Positions 3,398 to 18,696 of a stretch of 32,000 nucleotides of DNA are shown here, in pieces. Every line of letters starts with the position of its first letter. Within the stretch, counting starts at the first letter, position 1. Source of the stretch: Candidatus Hermodarchaeota archaeon (GTDB taxonomy: Archaea > Asgardarchaeota > Heimdallarchaeia > Hodarchaeales > Hodarchaeaceae); contig JBHLKY010000006.1 of assembly GCA_048886185.1 (NCBI GenBank), positions 90,001-122,000 on the forward strand. Direction: 5' to 3'. The notes under the pieces were generated by a model. It did no database searches and was not told where the DNA came from. It worked only from the letters and a program-made list of their open reading frames with translations. A program made the translations under genes and the position numbers.

Positions 3398-4711
3398 TTA
3401 TATTTCAGATTTAGTAATGTTAGAGGAATTTTGTTTTAATTTATATTCCAGAACTTGTTCACTAACTAGTTTTAAGAGTCCAACGTCTTTAGTGGAATCA
3501 CCAACCATGAATAAAGAAGTTTGTAATGCACTATCGGTCGCCCACTTCAATGCAATAGCATTTGACCCATGTTGGGACAAAACTATCTGAACCAAATCTG
3601 TACGAAATAATCGTGAACAAAGATTGTTGATTGCAATGAAAATTTGGCATATATATGCATGCTTTCTAGCAACGCGATTATTACTTGTGCGGAGGGTTTC
3701 AAATGTATGCATACTACACCGCAAGAGAGATACTTCTGTAATAATTGGTTTAAAGCTTCTTAGTAGTTCAAAGCTCCCATTTAAAAAATGGTTTTCTGGA
3801 AAAAGGTCACAACTATCCCTAATAGATATTGAATAGCGTGATATATTCGTCTCCACGGTGAGACTACTCTCAATATTTAGATTCCATAATATTTCCCGAA
3901 AGCTTCTAAATAGACTTCCCAGACGTCCTTTACCTGAACTAAATGCAATTATAAAATTATTTCGAATATATAATAGATAAAACTGCTGATTACTATATGT
4001 TTTCCCATGAATCTCGATGGGTAACGCATCAAAGAAAGTTCCATATGTCTTGAGTTCGTCTTCATAATTTTGCATAAGTGAGGGAATAGTATTTACCAAT
4101 GAAACTATATCTGGAGATAAGACAGTATTATGAACAGCTCGGATTGTTCCATCAGAAACTAGAACCGTTTCTTTATCGGTACATATTTCACTAATTCGGT
4201 TTTGAAGTGTATCATCTATTTTTGTTAATAGAATTTTTTTGATGTTCCCAAATACTTTGTGCAGAGAATATATATCCTGATTATTGTTATTTTGAATCTT
4301 AATTTCATGAATAGCCTCTTTTAAAATGTTTGAAAAAGCCAGAGAATGTTGTAATAATTTATCTTGATGAGAACGCGGAATAAATAACATGAAGCTTTCA
4401 ATACGATTTCTTCCTCTAGCTTCAGGATCATCTACCATGAATGAATGTATCAATACCCGTCCTTGAATACCTGTGACATTAATAGGAATAATTGCTGTTT
4501 CAGGATCTCCTGTTGGTTCACCCACCCCAATTGCCATGGTAAATAGTGTAGTAGTAACGCCTTGAAGAATGATTCTGGGGATTTCTAATTCGTGAGTCAA
4601 ATAGGAATCTAGAACAGGGCCATGTTCTTCATCAAAGATAATATGAGCTAAAAAAAACTGAATTGGAATGTCTTCTGGCCTATCAAATGTTCCCATAATT
4701 TTTGGGCTCAC
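3398..4711 (-). CDS. Folliculin/SMCR8-type longin (uDENN-like) domain fused to two roadblock-like domains
   Basis: aa17-135: FDEEHGP and HSFMVDDPEARGRNRIESF resemble the FLCN/SMCR8 longin; aa165-280 and aa308-425 have roadblock-like helix/strand order ending in LGSLF and VGLLKL; GTG start. Confidence 0.6.
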   Translation of the reverse strand: MSPKIMGTFDRPEDIPIQFFLAHIIFDEEHGPVLDSYLTHELEIPRIILQGVTTTLFTMAIGVGEPTGDPETAIIPINVTGIQGRVLIHSFMVDDPEARGRNRIESFMLFIPRSHQDKLLQHSLAFSNILKEAIHEIKIQNNNNQDIYSLHKVFGNIKKILLTKIDDTLQNRISEICTDKETVLVSDGTIRAVHNTVLSPDIVSLVNTIPSLMQNYEDELKTYGTFFDALPIEIHGKTYSNQQFYLLYIRNNFIIAFSSGKGRLGSLFRSFREILWNLNIESSLTVETNISRYSISIRDSCDLFPENHFLNGSFELLRSFKPIITEVSLLRCSMHTFETLRTSNNRVARKHAYICQIFIAINNLCSRLFRTDLVQIVLSQHGSNAIALKWATDSALQTSLFMVGDSTKDVGLLKLVSEQVLEYKLKQNSSNITKSEI

Positions 4712-4860
4712 CTTTTGCTTGTTATGTCTTGATTGAAAAAATCTTTCAAGATTACGATGGAATGGAATGTTCTAATTAGTTTTCTCATTACTTCAATTAA
4801 GTTTTTTTGAATACTCTTAGGAAATTCAACAAATTTTCTTACATCATAGATATCTGCCAT
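4708..4860 (-). CDS. Putative 50-aa small protein, not in the ORF track (MADIYDVRKFVEFPKSIQKNLIEVMRKLIRTFHSIVILKDFFNQDITSKR)
   Basis: ATG at 4860; TGA stop overlaps the GTG start of the next gene (GTGA, 4-nt overlap). Confidence 0.4.
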   Translation of the reverse strand: MADIYDVRKFVEFPKSIQKNLIEVMRKLIRTFHSIVILKDFFNQDITSKR

Positions 4861-4962
4861 TCAAAGTGACAAAATAGTCTTAAGCAAGCTCATATAATAA
4901 AATACTATGGCTTTCTTCCTGTAACTCCTTAAATCAAGAGAAAGAAACAATTAGTTTTGAAA

Positions 4963-5274
4963 TTAGGATTTTGATTTCTTTTTCTTTATTAAATCGATGA
5001 TTTCAGCCCATTCTTCTTCCTGTTTTGATTTTTTCGAAGGATTCAGACGATCCTTTACCCCTAATATATCTAATGCCCATTGGCGTTCCTCTTCTCGCTT
5101 TTTCTCCCTTTTAATTTCACGATGTTCTGCTGCACTAATCCAAGTCCCTAAGGCAGCTTCCTGAATACCACAATTGATGCAAACATACAATTTTTCTTCG
5201 GGATTCCAAAATAAAGTCCCTTCCTTACAATTGGTGCAAGGAATCAAAGAATCACGTACAGGAGGTTTGGACAA
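4963..5274 (-). CDS. TFIIB-type zinc-ribbon protein with charged helical C-terminus
   Basis: CTNC...LFWNPEEKLYVCINCG followed by a K/E/R-rich helix; starts 6 nt after the upstream roadblock gene. Confidence 0.75.
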   Translation of the reverse strand: MSKPPVRDSLIPCTNCKEGTLFWNPEEKLYVCINCGIQEAALGTWISAAEHREIKREKKREEERQWALDILGVKDRLNPSKKSKQEEEWAEIIDLIKKKKSKS

Positions 5275-5280
5275 AGTTGA

Positions 5281-5757
5281 TCACTTCTTCTTTGATAAAA
5301 TAATATCTAGTTCTTGGGGAGTAATCTTTAGAGGTCGCCTCAATGGGGGCCATTGTTGGATTATCTGTGAAATAGAATCAACAGCTGGACCAATTATTAA
5401 TTTCAAGAGCTCAAGGTCGACATAAGGATCCATCAATACTCCTAAAAAAGCGATTCGATCAATTGCTTGTAAAAATAGTTTATAATTACTACTTTCAGCG
5501 GTGAAAGAAACCCAAGGGGAACTGCCAATTTCATGACCAATTGTATCCATATTTGATTGAATACCAGCTACTAGTGAGCAAAGAATAAGGCTGCTTTCCT
5601 TACCTAAGGTGCCTTCCAGATTTACCTCCTCGATTAAAAGCCCATCATTATCAACACAGAATCCGGAATAAATACCATCGAGAGAATTCACGATATCTGT
5701 TAAAACTTGTCGTAATCCGATTTCTGATCGTCTTGAAGTATTATTAGAAAAAGACAA
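5281..5757 (-). CDS. Roadblock/LC7 (MglB-like) domain protein
   Basis: LRQVLTDIVNSLDGIYSGFCVDNDGLLIE ... FLGVLMDPYVDLELL is a typical roadblock pattern; TTG start. Confidence 0.82.
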   Translation of the reverse strand: MSFSNNTSRRSEIGLRQVLTDIVNSLDGIYSGFCVDNDGLLIEEVNLEGTLGKESSLILCSLVAGIQSNMDTIGHEIGSSPWVSFTAESSNYKLFLQAIDRIAFLGVLMDPYVDLELLKLIIGPAVDSISQIIQQWPPLRRPLKITPQELDIILSKKK

Positions 5758-5927
5758 TTAAATTCAACCAGATCTTCCTGAAAGTTTGATAAGACAGATT
5801 ATTTAGTTTCGAGTAAATAATTAATGTCTCCTATTTGAATTTATCTTATAATAATAAGAAAACTGTAGTTCACGATAACATTTTTGGATAACTTACAGAG
5901 TAAGCCTTTCAATAATAAGGAACAGTC

Positions 5928-5935
5928 TTTATAAA
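5928..5935 (+). promoter_or_regulatory. TATA box of the SRP RNA gene
   Basis: TTTATAAA ends about 21 nt before the predicted RNA 5' end at 5956. Confidence 0.6.
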
Positions 5936-5955
5936 GGTACATTAGAGTAACTACA

Positions 5956-6262
5956 TGGAACAGTAGGCGGCTGAGGATAGCGGCTCAGCTAGATCGTAAC
6001 GCTATATGACGAGCTTAATCCCAGAACTGAGATGCCTATACCTAGTAAGGCTCCTTGTTTTGCACAATGAGAGGTCCTCCGACTAGGTGGCCTCTTGCTG
6101 AGATTCCTCTGGAGAGAGGAATGAGAAAGCAAGGTTAAAACGGGTCAGGCATGGGAATGAACAGCCCTAAGACCGAGAGGTTATGCTTTTCGGGCTCGGG
6201 CCTCGAGAGCGATCAAGTACAACCAAGCTAGTGTGGAAGCCCCGAAGTCCTGGTCTGTTCCA
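5956..6262 (+). ncRNA. ffs: Archaeal signal recognition particle RNA (7S/SRP RNA), about 307 nt
   Basis: GC-rich island. Terminal helix TGGAACAG/CTGTTCCA; Alu-like CGTAAC; helix 5 pairs GAGGTCC/GGGCCTC and GGCCTCT/AGAGGTT; helix 6 TTCCTCT-GGAG-AGAGGAA; helix 8 GGGTCAGG-CAT-GGGA-ATG-AACAGCCC. Confidence 0.93.
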
Positions 6263-13378: not shown

Positions 13379-14275
13379 TCATCCTAAAAAGAACATTACT
13401 ACAGCATAAATTATTCCAATGATTACCGCGTGAGATCCTTCAGGATCAAGAGATTTAGCTGCAAAATAAATTAGTACAACCCCCCAAATCAATATGCCCA
13501 TTTCTATGAAAAAAAGTATATCTCCCGTTATCCCGAGAGGTGTACTCATTGAAGATAGATCAAAAATATCATTTACTACATATGTTGTTGGCTCAGTAAA
13601 TAATGAAAAAAGGATAAGGCGTATCAGTTCACTGAATATTCTGGGGAGAAAACTCCAACCTATAATTGTAGCTATAGTTTTAAAATTTCTTTCATGTGAG
13701 GGAACTTGTGATGAAATTATCGATAATAATATCCACAAAATCACACTCCCGATTAACCAGCTAATGATGAATCCCAAAGGGGCAAAAAAAGCTGTAAATA
13801 TCGTCATAACCTCCACCACTTCTTCCATAGAAATGTCCATTCCTGAAAATCCTAAACTGTCATAAAATGCTTGTGTAAACTCTATTGTTGACTTTGAAGA
13901 GAGAACGAATAAAGCTATACCTGAAATAATTCCAGCTATCAAAACAACAAGAAATGGTTGGCCTAAATTCGGTCGTTTAACTATTCGAGCCATTTCCTGT
14001 TGAGGAGAAATCAGAACTCCTTGAAAATGCTGAAAAAACGGAGAGGGATGCTCAGCTGTTATTCTTTCTGGTCTATAAGAATCAGGATAAGAGGGAGTAC
14101 CTCTATCTCTTACAATTGAGGGGTATGAGGAGGGAGGTTTAGAACTAACTACTCCAGTTGGATCAACAGTTGGCACTGGGGTTCCGCAGTAAGCACAAAA
14201 AGTAGCTCCTCCAAGTAATTTCTGACCACAATTTCCACAGAATTTTGGGGAGCCTTTAGGACTGTTATTACTCAT
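13379..14275 (-). CDS. Double zinc-ribbon plus Yip1-domain membrane protein
   Basis: FCGNCG...FCAYCG, Pro/Ser-rich linker, then VLISP...five hydrophobic segments including IIGWSFLP. Confidence 0.78.
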   Translation of the reverse strand: MSNNSPKGSPKFCGNCGQKLLGGATFCAYCGTPVPTVDPTGVVSSKPPSSYPSIVRDRGTPSYPDSYRPERITAEHPSPFFQHFQGVLISPQQEMARIVKRPNLGQPFLVVLIAGIISGIALFVLSSKSTIEFTQAFYDSLGFSGMDISMEEVVEVMTIFTAFFAPLGFIISWLIGSVILWILLSIISSQVPSHERNFKTIATIIGWSFLPRIFSELIRLILFSLFTEPTTYVVNDIFDLSSMSTPLGITGDILFFIEMGILIWGVVLIYFAAKSLDPEGSHAVIIGIIYAVVMFFLG

Positions 14276-14486: not shown

Positions 14487-14804
14487 TTAACTAGAACGAT
14501 CTTTTAACACAACGATAGTAAAGCCTGCAGCCTCATCAGGAGTGATAATTATTTCTGATTTAGGCATTTCTACATAAACACTTTGAAGTCGGCCATGTGA
14601 AAGAGCATCCGACACACTTCGAACCTTCTTAACCAATGATGCAATATGAGCTGATACTCTTTCTGCATCTGATTGTGGGAGATTACTTTGAAGTGGTAGC
14701 CCATCTTCATCACAAACTAAAATTCCTTTCACTCCACGTCGGGCTGCTAATCTTTTGATTGTGTTTTGCAATACAGAAGGTATAACATATTCATCATTAG
14801 ACAT
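14487..14804 (-). CDS. Roadblock/LC7 protein, dynein light chain roadblock (DYNLRB)-like, paralog A
   Basis: TIKRLAARRGVKGILVCDEDGLPLQSNL...KVRS...EIIITPD parallels DYNLRB [28 protein letters not shown]...KARS...EIMVAPD. Confidence 0.88.
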   Translation of the reverse strand: MSNDEYVIPSVLQNTIKRLAARRGVKGILVCDEDGLPLQSNLPQSDAERVSAHIASLVKKVRSVSDALSHGRLQSVYVEMPKSEIIITPDEAAGFTIVVLKDRSS

Positions 14805-14825: not shown

Positions 14826-15170
14826 TTACTTTGATGTTAATGTCATAGTACTACTCTCCCGTTTTACTAGTGCCACAATAATGATTTCGGAGTCATAATC
14901 AGGAATTATTTCTACATCCCCAACCTCCAACTCTAACCGAATGCTTCTAGCTTCTTCTTGTGAAATTTCCCTTGAAATGCTTCTCACTTTTCCCACCAAA
15001 GAGGCAACATGTGCTGCTACTCTCTCTGTATCCTCTTCTGGAAGACTAGATTGGAGTGGTAATCCATCTGTATCACTCAACACAGCACCATATACTCCTT
15101 TATGTTTCCCGACTGATTCTATAACTTTTTCTAGCGCCTGTTGCGATAAATACCCTGCTTCTTGTGACAT
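14826..15170 (-). CDS. Roadblock/LC7 protein, DYNLRB-like, paralog B
   Basis: HKGVYGAVLSDTDGLPLQSSL...ASLVGKVRS...VEIIPD; shares a long block with the downstream paralog. Confidence 0.88.
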   Translation of the reverse strand: MSQEAGYLSQQALEKVIESVGKHKGVYGAVLSDTDGLPLQSSLPEEDTERVAAHVASLVGKVRSISREISQEEARSIRLELEVGDVEIIPDYDSEIIIVALVKRESSTMTLTSK

Positions 15171-15647: not shown

Positions 15648-16097
15648 TTGGTCCCACATAAAGATGAAAACATTAACACATCCCAAGAAAAACTAGATGA
15701 AATTTTGTCATCTATCAAAGAATTAAGATATCATATTGGCATCTTAGATCACAGAATCTCTCAACTCGAGGGGCATATAGACCAGAAATTATCGACTGTT
15801 ACAAAATCTGTTATCTTTCAATCCAGTGTTGATGATGAACAGAAAACAGATTTTGATGATTTAGATGAACATTTGAAACGGACATATCAAACCTTAGCTA
15901 CTGCTCAGGAACCTCTGACTGCCTCACAATTGGCTGAAAGGATGGGAAGGAGTCGCAGCACAACAAGCTATCATTTAAACAAACTTGAAAAGATGGGAGT
16001 TCTTGAAAAATTCCCAAGCCCATTAAAACAAAGTTCAAGAAGTATTCTTTTCCGTCCGAAAGATCGATCATTTGAATTAATAGACTCAGAGCATTAA
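15648..16097 (+). CDS. Coiled-coil plus winged HTH (ArsR/TrmB-like) transcriptional regulator
   Basis: Heptad-like LDEILSSIKELRYHIGILDHRISQLE, then LTASQLAERMGRSRSTTSYHLNKLEKMGVL; start uncertain (TTG). Confidence 0.8.
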   Translation: MVPHKDENINTSQEKLDEILSSIKELRYHIGILDHRISQLEGHIDQKLSTVTKSVIFQSSVDDEQKTDFDDLDEHLKRTYQTLATAQEPLTASQLAERMGRSRSTTSYHLNKLEKMGVLEKFPSPLKQSSRSILFRPKDRSFELIDSEH

Positions 16098-16688: not shown

Positions 16689-16992
16689 CTATTTCACCTT
16701 ACATTTTTCTTATTTAGCTAGATTTAATAGTTCAATTGTCTTCTAAATTCGTTATATAAAGGTTTCAATCCTACACATATAGTGATGAAAGAGATTCTCT
16801 AGTCTCCAGCTGTAGTCTCACTGAGACATATTTTTTCTTCATCAATATTTGCTTATATCTGTGTTTTACTTGTTTTAACTCAATTTTCTTATAACACATA
16901 AATATCATTTGATTCGTGAGGAAGGTGCCAAAAAAATTAGAAGTTCAACACAATTTAAACTTTATAGAATTCTCGGATCCAGAAATTAAAAA

Positions 16993-18696
16993 TTAATCAT
17001 CTGATTTGGAATTAATATGAGACACTTGTCTCACATATCCTCGTCTTCGCAATTCTTCGAGGCATTCAAGCTCTAAATTTTGGTCTCGTTTTGTTATTTC
17101 TGTAGCTGTTTCGGGAGAAAGCACTTTGGAAGTAAGTAGAGCTCTAATAGTGGGTCTCAATTTTTCTGGTAGATCTAGAATTCCTAAAGTATCAAAGGGC
17201 TGAATTTGGACATATTTGGGAGGTTCCGAACATACACAAATCTTTCTCCCAATTTCTTCTTCCAATTTATGTCTTTTAGACCGTGGATTAATTCCTAATT
17301 TAAGCAAATAGTCATGTCTAGGATTATGGGCAGTTGTAAACTCATAAAGCAATAAATCAGTGACAAAAGGGTCACTGATGTTTTTCTGAACATAATTATG
17401 GAATAAGATTTCAGGATCGCCTCTTAATAGATCCATTTCAGCCCCGTATGCAAGTATATTCTGTCGTAACTGCTCATTTACAGTCACTATATCAAAAACA
17501 TATGTTTCAAAAATTTCTTCAACATATTTCGTTGCCCCCGCAAATCCACTAGTCTTTCCAGTCTTAGAAAAAATATCTATTGCTTCTTTGAATTCTTTCT
17601 CAAATCTCGTTATATATTGAAAAAGTAATTCGGTTAAGTTATCACTCATAATCGGGCTATAAAGAATACCAATTACATGTTTCCCCTTCCTTTGAGCAAT
17701 TTTCATGTTTCCATTATCAATATAGCGTAAATCGCCGCGACGCCCAGCTGTTTCTGATACCATATGAGCTATGCTAGTTAACGCTGCTGTAATAAGGGCA
17801 GGATTTTTCATTTCATCCTCTGCCTTTCCAAAAAAGTAATAATACATAGTTGATCCTGATTCACGATCTGTAATAAATAAAGCTATAGGTGAAGCTTCTG
17901 TTCCAATAGTAATCCAATCAAACTCTTCTTTTTCTGTGAATTCTTGGAATTTTTCACTCAAATCTTGAAATGTTTCATTCACAATAGATTGTGGTGATTC
18001 TAAATAATAAACACCTTGATCAGAAAAGTCATTAAGTTCAGGAATCCACGGGATTGCATAGAAAATCGGGTGTCTGAATTTTGATTCCATTTGTGTGAGG
18101 AATTGATCGAATTTACCAAAAACTAAAGGAAATTTGACCATGTTCATGATTAATAAAGTAGGTGTGGTAAGGAAGGACAAAAAGTTTTGAATAGTAGATT
18201 TTGTTAGATTAAATGTAGGGTACTTTTCTGATGAAATAACCCAAACCATATCACTCTGTAGAATTGTAGCCATTGTAATACTGTTTTCTTCTAAGCTCAC
18301 AGGGAGAATGAACACTAAAAGATCGATGGTATCCTTGAAAAAGAGGGCGTTGACACGATATTTAGTACGTTCTCTTAAATCACTTGTTGGCAATGGACAC
18401 CCTGCAGAAGGAAGAACACGTATAAAGGATCCTTTATCCTCATCCTCGAAGATTGATAAAGATTCGCTTACAAGAATATCTTCAGATATCTCGCTTAGAA
18501 AATCTGTACTAGTAAAATTCGATTTACCATATCTAAGTAAAGTATATCTTAGTTTTTCAGTAATGGAAAAATCAACAATAAGAATACGAAGTCCAGGCTT
18601 TGAACGGGCATAAGCTAAAAGGGCATTTAATGCGATTGTTTTTTTCCCACAACTAGGGGTACGAGAATAAACACTTATGATTTTGGGAGTTACCAT
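16993..18696 (-). CDS. Degenerate MinD/ParA-like domain fused to a longin domain and a C-terminal winged helix
   Basis: aa1-255: MinD-like order of motifs (IISVYS..SCGKKT, ILIVD, SDMVWV, LIMN, AIPW, ESPQS). aa270-397: longin pattern (LFITDRESG, LITAALTSI, YITRFEKEF, F...VEEIF). About aa505-560: wHTH (LEELRRRGYV). Confidence 0.68.
   Translation of the reverse strand: MVTPKIISVYSRTPSCGKKTIALNALLAYARSKPGLRILIVDFSITEKLRYTLLRYGKSNFTSTDFLSEISEDILVSESLSIFEDEDKGSFIRVLPSAGCPLPTSDLRERTKYRVNALFFKDTIDLLVFILPVSLEENSITMATILQSDMVWVISSEKYPTFNLTKSTIQNFLSFLTTPTLLIMNMVKFPLVFGKFDQFLTQMESKFRHPIFYAIPWIPELNDFSDQGVYYLESPQSIVNETFQDLSEKFQEFTEKEEFDWITIGTEASPIALFITDRESGSTMYYYFFGKAEDEMKNPALITAALTSIAHMVSETAGRRGDLRYIDNGNMKIAQRKGKHVIGILYSPIMSDNLTELLFQYITRFEKEFKEAIDIFSKTGKTSGFAGATKYVEEIFETYVFDIVTVNEQLRQNILAYGAEMDLLRGDPEILFHNYVQKNISDPFVTDLLLYEFTTAHNPRHDYLLKLGINPRSKRHKLEEEIGRKICVCSEPPKYVQIQPFDTLGILDLPEKLRPTIRALLTSKVLSPETATEITKRDQNLELECLEELRRRGYVRQVSHINSKSDD

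Follow-up and report, generated by a model that had tools for sequence, protein, structure and literature searches.

Eukaryotic membrane traffic depends heavily on platforms of longin or roadblock proteins that work with small GTPases, and Asgard archaea are rich in the platform proteins and in the GTPases alike. Prokaryotes position objects within the cell chiefly by means of the ParA/MinD fold. Asgard longins have been documented in fusions with Ras-like GTPases, TRAPPC3 and two-component domains, in a setting of heavy domain shuffling (PMC10933270; 10.1101/2020.10.19.343400); for most GTPases of these archaea the matching regulator has yet to be named, as the two genes seldom lie together (Tran et al. 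2024, PMC10933270). Our analysis concerns the gene P0001 in a 32,000-nucleotide stretch of a Candidatus Hermodarchaeota archaeon (assembly GCA_048886185.1, contig JBHLKY010000006.1, positions 90,001 to 122,000, forward strand), hereafter the window. We conclude with high confidence that P0001 joins a ParA/MinD fold with eroded catalytic motifs to a longin domain and a winged helix in a single chain. We further propose, with a probability of roughly 50%, that the gene encodes a non-catalytic adaptor whose longin dimer docks the neighbouring Rab-like GTPase, P0002. A sequence-only reading of the same DNA had outlined the architecture and supposed it to be undescribed, and we likewise found no ParA/MinD-longin fusion in the limited set of literature that we searched, PMC10933270 and 10.1101/2020.10.19.343400 included. 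New here are the deep linkage, a partner family typified by the protein P0085, canonical ParA neighbours, a site of two His and two Cys residues (HHCC) and a model of the complex; the P0085 partner, the ParA neighbours and the HHCC region went unmentioned in that reading. The features on which the argument draws are the following.

16993..18696, minus strand: fusion gene P0001, 567 amino acids (aa), with a degenerate ParA/MinD fold, a longin, an HHCC helical region and a winged helix (from the open reading frame, its translation and homologs)
17911..18696, minus strand: ParA/MinD-fold domain, catalytically eroded, aa 1-262 (from a hidden Markov model (HMM), profile alignment, Foldseek and the Pfam matches of homologs)
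18637..18666, minus strand: degenerate Walker A, SRTPSCGKKT, aa 11-20 (from alignment A1 and MinD equivalences)
18301..18324, minus strand: Walker B stretch, DLLVFILP, aa 125-132 (I130 at the Asp position; P132 invariant)
17497..17895, minus strand: longin domain, aa 268-400 (from model secondary structure, Foldseek and VIA, a re-alignment of Foldseek's candidates)
17224..17496, minus strand: five-helix HHCC region, aa 401-491 (invariant H457, H461, C487 and C489; predicted local distance difference test (pLDDT) about 90)
17011..17223, minus strand: winged helix, aa 492-562 (from VIA-wide structural matches)
16689..16992, minus strand: spacer between fusion and GTPase, 304 bp, which holds a 244-aa P0085-family gene at the related loci L001 and L002
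16152..16688, minus strand: Rab/Ras-like small GTPase P0002, 178 aa (Pfam Ras, E 1.9e-48), the predicted partner of the longin dimer

The fusion protein and its family

The frame at 16993-18696 translates as 567 codons free of internal stops. P0001 itself falls into no Pfam family, and an NCBIfam search with the protein gave nothing but noise. A search of 5.8 billion clustered proteins returned 65 relatives, nearly all of them 559-578 residues long and 57-84% identical to P0001, with P0065 standing apart at 43%; the named sources are Hodarchaeales or Heimdallarchaeia genomes from metagenomes. Together with a mean column identity of 69% in the family alignment (A1, 27 sequences), this strong conservation speaks for a protein that functions. 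Three more distant full-length relatives, at 28-30% identity, came from an exhaustive HMMER run over 1.84 billion representatives: P0068 (from a Thorarchaeota genome), P0069 and P0070. The run also returned proteins that share the middle domain only. A further clade, typified by P0088 (576 aa), occurs in other Hodarchaeales, and a word-index search with P0069 gave P0069 itself alone. Among 400 species-representative genomes of the phylum, a set that does not include the Thorarchaeota and other distant homologs, a profile of the longin, HHCC and winged-helix regions matched in one genus (19 of its 21 genomes) and in one genome of the same order, and nowhere else. The fusion family is conserved, yet narrow and patchy.

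At one locus (L028) a fusion of the P0088 type is called as two genes, at 4423-4914 and 5001-6071 (163 and 356 aa). Its cluster mate at 90% identity is a single protein of 576 aa, and the split is probably a frameshift or an assembly error.

The eroded ParA/MinD domain

The N-terminal domain aligns with ParA/MinD proteins by several routes. An HMM built from the family alone matches the canonical ParA/MinD/Mrp proteins of the same genome at E 1.8e-10 to 1e-5 (in a small database), and a wider profile, composed of family members and two canonical ParA sequences, aligns with Pyrococcus MinD (1g3q) from end to end. These alignments bear out the claim of the sequence-only reading that the MinD-like motif order is complete. 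Foldseek found Archaeoglobus MinD (1hyq) at E 5.7e-4, and the homologs P0032, P0068 and P0070 match Pfam CbiA or AAA_31, the gathering cut-off being reached by P0032 alone. A genome-wide search with AAA_31 recovered ten genes of the ParA/MinD type and missed P0001, which shows the extent of its drift. Against PDB sequences, the full-length family profile gave spurious matches to acetylcholine receptors and weak ones to the P-loop of CapB. We considered a Rag-like GTPase identity and rejected it, because the domain is of the ParA type: it aligns to ParA/MinD, and the NKxD and DxxG motifs of the Ras-like TRAFAC class are absent.

The catalytic motifs are where the domain departs from its relatives, much as had been noticed from the letters: Walker A reads S11-R-T-P-S-C-G-K-K-T20, and Walker B, D125-L-L-V-F-I-L-P132, is without its Asp. 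By equivalence, R12 occupies the position of the first Gly of the P-loop, T13 that of the signature Lys, P14 and S15 those of the Gly-Gly pair and K19 that of the Mg-binding Thr, while G17-K18 retain the Gly-Lys. The deviant Walker A pattern, xKGGxGK[ST], is thus broken at both its signature Lys and its Mg-binding Ser/Thr. The Walker B pattern, hhhhD-x-P, has Ile, Val or Leu in place of the Asp across the family (I130 in P0001, with P132 kept). In switch I the Asp is kept as D42, and the second Asp is lost to S44. The signature Lys and the Walker B Asp are missing from all six clades, down to 18-30% identity, though the details of the P-loop vary, with GRST among the Thorarchaeota, GKRT for P0069 and GKTE for P0088. 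Losses shared by six clades show that the erosion of catalytic residues is old and stable.

These data make it very unlikely that the domain is a still active NTPase with an unusual P-loop, which would make the protein a genuine motor or switch of the ParA/MinD kind with a longin attached. In favor of such an activity, the close family never varies at G17, K18, T20, N24 and D42 (S11, G17, K18 and T20 across the 27 sequences of A1), and the P-loop of the P0088 clade, GKTE, has its Thr in place. Moreover, G17, D42, N185 and P216 are invariant down to 26% identity, and the persistence of N185 and P216 suggests a nucleotide pocket under selection. However, the Walker B Asp is replaced and the signature Lys absent in six of six clades, most of them have Lys, Gln or Arg directly behind the P-loop Lys, and the Thorarchaeota clade has Arg for the P-loop Lys itself. 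In P-loop NTPases, hydrolysis stops or becomes far slower once the Walker B acid and the Mg-binding hydroxyl are lost. The counterparts of N185 and P216 in the alignment with MinD are its LNR Asn and IP Pro, which we take to lie near the adenine in MinD structures, and the retention of this pair would make nucleotide binding without hydrolysis possible. From these alignments we infer that the domain is a nucleotide-binding or a purely structural dimerisation module, perhaps one that is paired with a canonical ParA-type ATPase.

The longin domain and its modelled complex with P0002

Structure prediction identifies aa 268-400 as a longin domain, in agreement with the earlier placement at aa 270-397. 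The AlphaFold2 model (pLDDT about 75, with loops near 50) has the longin order of two strands, a helix, three strands and two helices: strands at 272-277 and 283-288, a helix at 299-316, strands at 325-327, 332-337 and 341-347, and helices at 352-368 and 370-379. Its best match is Trs23 of TRAPP (3cue_A; VIA Z 13.0, root-mean-square deviation 2.5 A over 126 residues), and the top 50 chains are all longins, with Z from 13.0 to 10.2. Sec22b, VAMP7, Ykt6, adaptor protein (AP) sigma and mu subunits, zeta- and delta-COP, Fuzzy, Mon1/Ccz1 and the SRX domain all score between 10 and 13. In Foldseek's own list the matches include AP sigma, zeta-COP, TRAPP, Mon1-Ccz1, Sec22b and VAMP7, with Roadblock proteins and Rag C-terminal domains ranking lower. 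A roadblock identity was rejected, as the alignments begin at residue 268, not at the preceding helix, and take in the C-terminal helices.

Related longins occur in other combinations. The subfamily to which the P0001 longin belongs is also fused to transporters of the major facilitator superfamily (MFS) in this genome, and to a CBS pair and in proteins of about 750 aa elsewhere. The two MFS-longin fusions, of 558 and 550 aa, lie at 78296-79972 of contig C19 (L021:229-1905, plus strand) and, on contig C7, at L023:1453-3105 (minus strand), and their C-terminal longin is 25% identical to aa 261-396 of P0001; a transporter with a cytosolic longin resembles the transporter-linked GTPase sensing of eukaryotes. 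Many other Asgard genomes, those of family f20 among them, contain open frames some 740-780 aa long that match the family in the longin region alone, at profile positions of about 232-396 (for example G149:C14:16106-16591; compare P0077 and P0089). These form another longin fusion family.

As the sequence-only reading had stated, a Rab-like gene lies next to the fusion: P0002 is on the same strand, 304 bp downstream, matches Pfam Ras and has intact G1, G3 (DLAGQ), G4 (NKTD) and G5 (SAK) motifs. We modelled two copies of aa 262-402 (27-row alignment) with P0002 (28-row alignment). The complex scored 0.69 (0.69, 0.71 and 0.68 in the individual runs) against 0.19 for the best control, and it passes a mark that solved complexes reach in 58 of 80 cases and mismatched pairs in 2 of 110, a calibration that is rough here (own alignments, two copies). 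The runs share at least 84% of their contacts, with a partner pLDDT of at least 80. On the longin side, the interface consists of alpha1 of both copies, the beta1-beta2 loop (D277-T283) and the S377-S383 loop (SKTGKTS) of one copy. The GTPase contributes residues 4-10, switch I (Y37-G42), the interswitch strands and switch II (V69-Y77). Among the interface residues, G281 and L301 are invariant, and S280, A304, A305, E315 and G380 nearly so. This geometry is that of the MglA-MglB, TRAPP-Ypt1 and Mon1-Ccz1-Ypt7 platforms (PMC10933270). The model supports a longin dimer that would bind the GTPase through its switch regions.

Gene linkage across relatives

The order of fusion, 244-aa gene (where present) and GTPase is kept in relatives at 60-80% identity. 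In L001 and L002 the intervening gene, P0085, ends 6-10 bp ahead of the GTPase gene. The most telling case is P0069, which is 29% identical to P0001 and lies in wholly different surroundings, with primase and M48 peptidase genes upstream and proteasome, SBDS and exosome genes downstream. Within 67 bp of P0069 follows a 196-aa homolog of P0085 (28% identity, E 2e-18), and 4 bp past that a GTPase that is 53% identical to P0002, the same level as the proteasome, SBDS and exosome proteins of that genome show to those of ours (47-62%). With a Rab-like query and a cut-off of E <= 1e-20, the genome that carries the window yields no fewer than 33 small-GTPase paralogs. Among these, the best match of the P0069-locus GTPase is P0002 (208 versus 187 bits). 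A maximum-likelihood tree groups it with P0002 (support 99/98) and away from 14 other paralogs, in a clade that also takes in a long-branch paralog of our genome (on contig C26). That three families lie side by side in two unrelated settings is evidence that they are linked in function. The locus offers a specific candidate pair of GTPase and regulator, probably a triad with the P0085-family protein.

The P0085 family (196-244 aa) is represented at L001:7907-8641, L002:6362-7096 and L027:7774-8364; it has no Pfam match, and an Atlas feature search gave no usable match. The 304-bp spacer of the window holds no remnant of it. Three copies lie elsewhere in this genome (contig C4, 189457-190170; C22, 35762-36466; C10, 53240-53950; the best 70% identical), and these share no neighbour and none adjoins a GTPase gene.

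The C-terminal HHCC region and winged helix

H457, H461, C487 and C489 are invariant in 31 of 31 sequences, down to 23% identity, and the HHCC region is a probable zinc site on the strength of this conservation. A model of aa 401-567 built from the 31 sequences reached a pLDDT of 87. Foldseek against the PDB returned nothing for it at E <= 0.001, and the structure searches gave no clear fold match for the HHCC helical region. A shape search of the ESM Atlas yielded leads only, with template modelling (TM) scores of 0.40-0.46 to PriA and to the zinc-plus-winged-helix part of RecQ, and 0.38 to an NPR2 family cluster.

A winged helix does follow the longin, as had been read from the sequence: aa 492-562 form three helices and a beta-hairpin wing in the model (pLDDT about 90). 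The best match lies in a GATOR1 entry, at residues 172-236 of the 362-residue chain 8fw5_B (Z 8.3, 1.8 A, 65 aa); the match record does not name the subunit, which we presume to be NPRL2. TFE-alpha follows at Z 8.0, and more than 40 chains of the MarR, Fur and TrmB types at Z 6-7. Such scores fit any winged helix and do not place the domain in a subfamily. The winged helix has a net charge of +1 and an isoelectric point (pI) of 8.5, its third helix a charge of -2 (family median), and the whole protein a pI of 5.4. DNA binding by the domain is possible from these values, though they do not suggest it, and the link to the nucleoid that the sequence-only reading drew through the winged helix looks weak because the presumed recognition helix is acidic.

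Proposed role and alternatives

We propose the following way of working for the adaptor. The dead ParA fold would serve dimerisation, or would pair with a live ParA. The longin would dimerise through alpha1 into the usual platform, on which the Rab-like GTPase would sit by switch I, the interswitch and switch II. The adaptor would then regulate or read the nucleotide state of the GTPase, as a guanine nucleotide exchange factor (GEF), a GTPase-activating protein (GAP) or an effector, while the zinc-type helical region and the winged helix may serve to bind one more partner, a protein or a nucleic acid. The analysis directly shows the folds, the lost motifs, the conservation and the linkage of the genes; we infer the binding and the dimerisation, as well as nucleotide and zinc binding and any activity.

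We acknowledge that a number of observations weigh against this proposal. The GTPase is not adjacent to the fusion in four of the six clades: P0065 is followed by a Hel308-type helicase gene on the opposite strand, P0070/P0087 by a radical SAM gene, and the P0088 and P0068 loci have no adjacent GTPase either, the contig of P0068 ending shortly past the fusion gene. The close relatives are collinear over the whole 13 kb, housekeeping genes included, so synteny there says little. In the window, a T-rich run directly past the fusion stop codon (about 16980-16992, minus strand) and a TATA-like box, TTTATATA, about 70 nt before the TTG start of the GTPase gene (about 16760-16767, minus strand) suggest that the two genes are transcribed separately. 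The complex resembles solved longin/roadblock-GTPase platforms, and its pass may thus reflect that likeness; near relatives of a genuine partner may pass the test as well, P0002 was the only one of the GTPase paralogs modelled, and a two-copy job with its own alignments departs from the calibration of the tool. Conservation at the interface is only marginally higher than elsewhere (0.755 versus 0.673, permutation p 0.056). The N-terminal domain was modelled at low confidence (pLDDT 26-64), and two Roadblock genes further along the window are equally plausible partners of the GTPase. The suggestion of a link to a Rab-like switch stands in part: the P0069 locus and the passing complex model give it real if indirect support, while the four clades that lack an adjacent GTPase do not.

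Two of those clades bring in a different kind of neighbour. In the P0068 (Thorarchaeota) and P0088 loci, a canonical ParA gene overlaps or abuts the start of the fusion (L003:5184-5984, L029:5093-5902 and L028:3614-4423). These ParAs read HSYKGGTGK[ST] and IIDTSPG, and so keep the Walker B Asp. Their position suggests a pairing of live and dead ParA. The fusion could accordingly belong to a ParA-type positioning or partition-like system with no tie to the GTPase, in which the dead ParA has a canonical ParA ATPase as its partner, DNA or other cargo is bound by the zinc region and the winged helix, and the longin serves only for dimerisation or sensing. We regard this as doubtful, if a serious contender. 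Besides the adjacent ParA genes and the frequent absence of the GTPase, the weak likeness of the C-terminal model to RecQ and PriA and the mildly basic winged helix agree with it. On the other hand, no ParA gene lies beside the fusion in this genome, where an ambiguous search left two candidate partners at 33-35% identity to the partner-type ParA, neither of them next to P0001 (ParA paralogs of this genome include genes at 93761-94513 of contig C2 and 31199-31831 of contig C19); the third helix of the winged helix is acidic, as is the protein as a whole. Nor does a ParA system alone explain the deep linkage of fusion, P0085 and GTPase or the passing complex model. Both such a system and the docking of P0002 by the longin dimer can hold.

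The remaining neighbours of the GTPase gene bear on a further alternative.

13379-14275, minus strand: Yip1 gene with an N-terminal zinc ribbon (Pfam)
14487-14804 and 14826-15170, minus strand: two tandem Roadblock/LC7 genes (Pfam)
15648-16097, plus strand: divergent ArsR/MarR-type helix-turn-helix gene, beside the GTPase gene

The two Roadblock proteins, encoded about 1 kb past the GTPase gene, could regulate P0002 in the manner of MglB, leaving the longin to bind another GTPase paralog or a partner of another kind, such as a membrane or coat-like protein. Longins with non-GTPase roles (SNAREs and adaptor sigma subunits) are indeed among the best fold matches, the subfamily of the P0001 longin also occurs joined to MFS transporters and to CBS pairs, and the complex test also lets close cousins pass. 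We nevertheless consider this decidedly unlikely, as the GTPase that adjoins the distant homolog of the fusion belongs to the P0002 subfamily and the Roadblock genes do not accompany it. The Yip1, Roadblock and helix-turn-helix neighbours are kept in close relatives only (Yip1 and Roadblock in L001, L002 and L007), and Yip1 and Roadblock genes are not found beside the distant homolog in L027. Elsewhere in the window, at 3398-4711 on the minus strand, a 437-aa protein matches Pfam Folliculin above the cut-off (E 2.6e-6, 27.8 bits), in agreement with the FLCN-like longin that had been reported for the window.

A broader possibility is that the fusion couples two cell-organizing systems, with its dead ParA engaging a canonical ParA/MinD-type ATPase and its longin dimer engaging the Rab-like GTPase and the P0085-family protein. 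We hold this to be unlikely. If true, the place where a small-GTPase switch of eukaryotic type is turned on or off would be decided by positioning machinery of prokaryotic type, and this would amount to an Asgard-specific spatial control of GTPase signalling without membrane-bound organelles; a real coupling would show how an archaeon that has no organelles gives a Rab-like switch a place to act. Since the family is narrow, confined to one Hodarchaeales genus and a few scattered distant homologs, its significance lies more with Asgard cell biology than with the ancestry of the eukaryotic machinery.

Comparison with known systems

With MinD, ParA, Soj and FleN (SIMIBI class; CbiA PF01656 and AAA_31 PF13614), P0001 shares the fold and the motif order over about 250 residues, and it keeps the P-loop Gly-Lys, the switch I Asp, the LNx Asn and the IP Pro. 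It differs in the loss of the signature Lys, of the Mg-binding Thr at its canonical place and of the Walker B Asp. It also lacks the C-terminal amphipathic helix of MinD, the equivalent helix being acidic, carries extra longin, zinc and winged-helix regions and falls below every Pfam threshold.

The Rab-GEF longin platforms, namely the TRAPP core of Bet5/Trs23, Mon1-Ccz1 and Fuzzy-Inturned, have the same longin fold (Z 11-13), and the modelled alpha1 dimer of P0001 touches switch I, the interswitch and switch II of a Rab-like GTPase as theirs do. This likeness is one of models, at 5-12% identity. Theirs are heterodimers where the modelled P0001 is a homodimer, and P0001 has no TRAPPC3-type or accessory subunits.

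A similar combination of folds is found in the eukaryotic receptor of the signal recognition particle (SRP), in which SR-alpha (SRX and NG domains) acts with SR-beta. There a longin and a SIMIBI-class NTPase are likewise joined in one chain, with a small GTPase bound to the longin as we propose for P0001; our fold matches include SRX (5ck3_E, Z 10.6; 7obq_y, Z 10.4). The likeness is at the level of the fold, as the domain order of P0001 is reversed and its NTPase is an eroded one of the ParA/MinD type, not an SRP-GTPase.

In Rag GTPases and in the Asgard fusions of GTPases with longins or roadblocks, a P-loop NTPase is likewise followed by a longin or roadblock domain, and RagA/RagC are the top Foldseek matches of the whole P0001 model. 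Unlike the Rag proteins, P0001 has a SIMIBI ParA/MinD domain, not a TRAFAC Ras-like one, and its second domain is a longin, not a roadblock.

The longin GAP subunits of the NPRL2/NPRL3 (GATOR1) and FLCN type share with P0001 a longin followed by a winged helix; P0001 differs from these in having no identified arginine finger and no DENN or TINI region, and in the presence of a ParA-fold domain. Finally, MglA-MglB offers the prokaryotic parallel of a small GTPase with a dimeric longin/roadblock-type platform encoded nearby, though MglB is a stand-alone roadblock, whereas the platform of P0001 is a longin set inside a multidomain protein of 567 aa.

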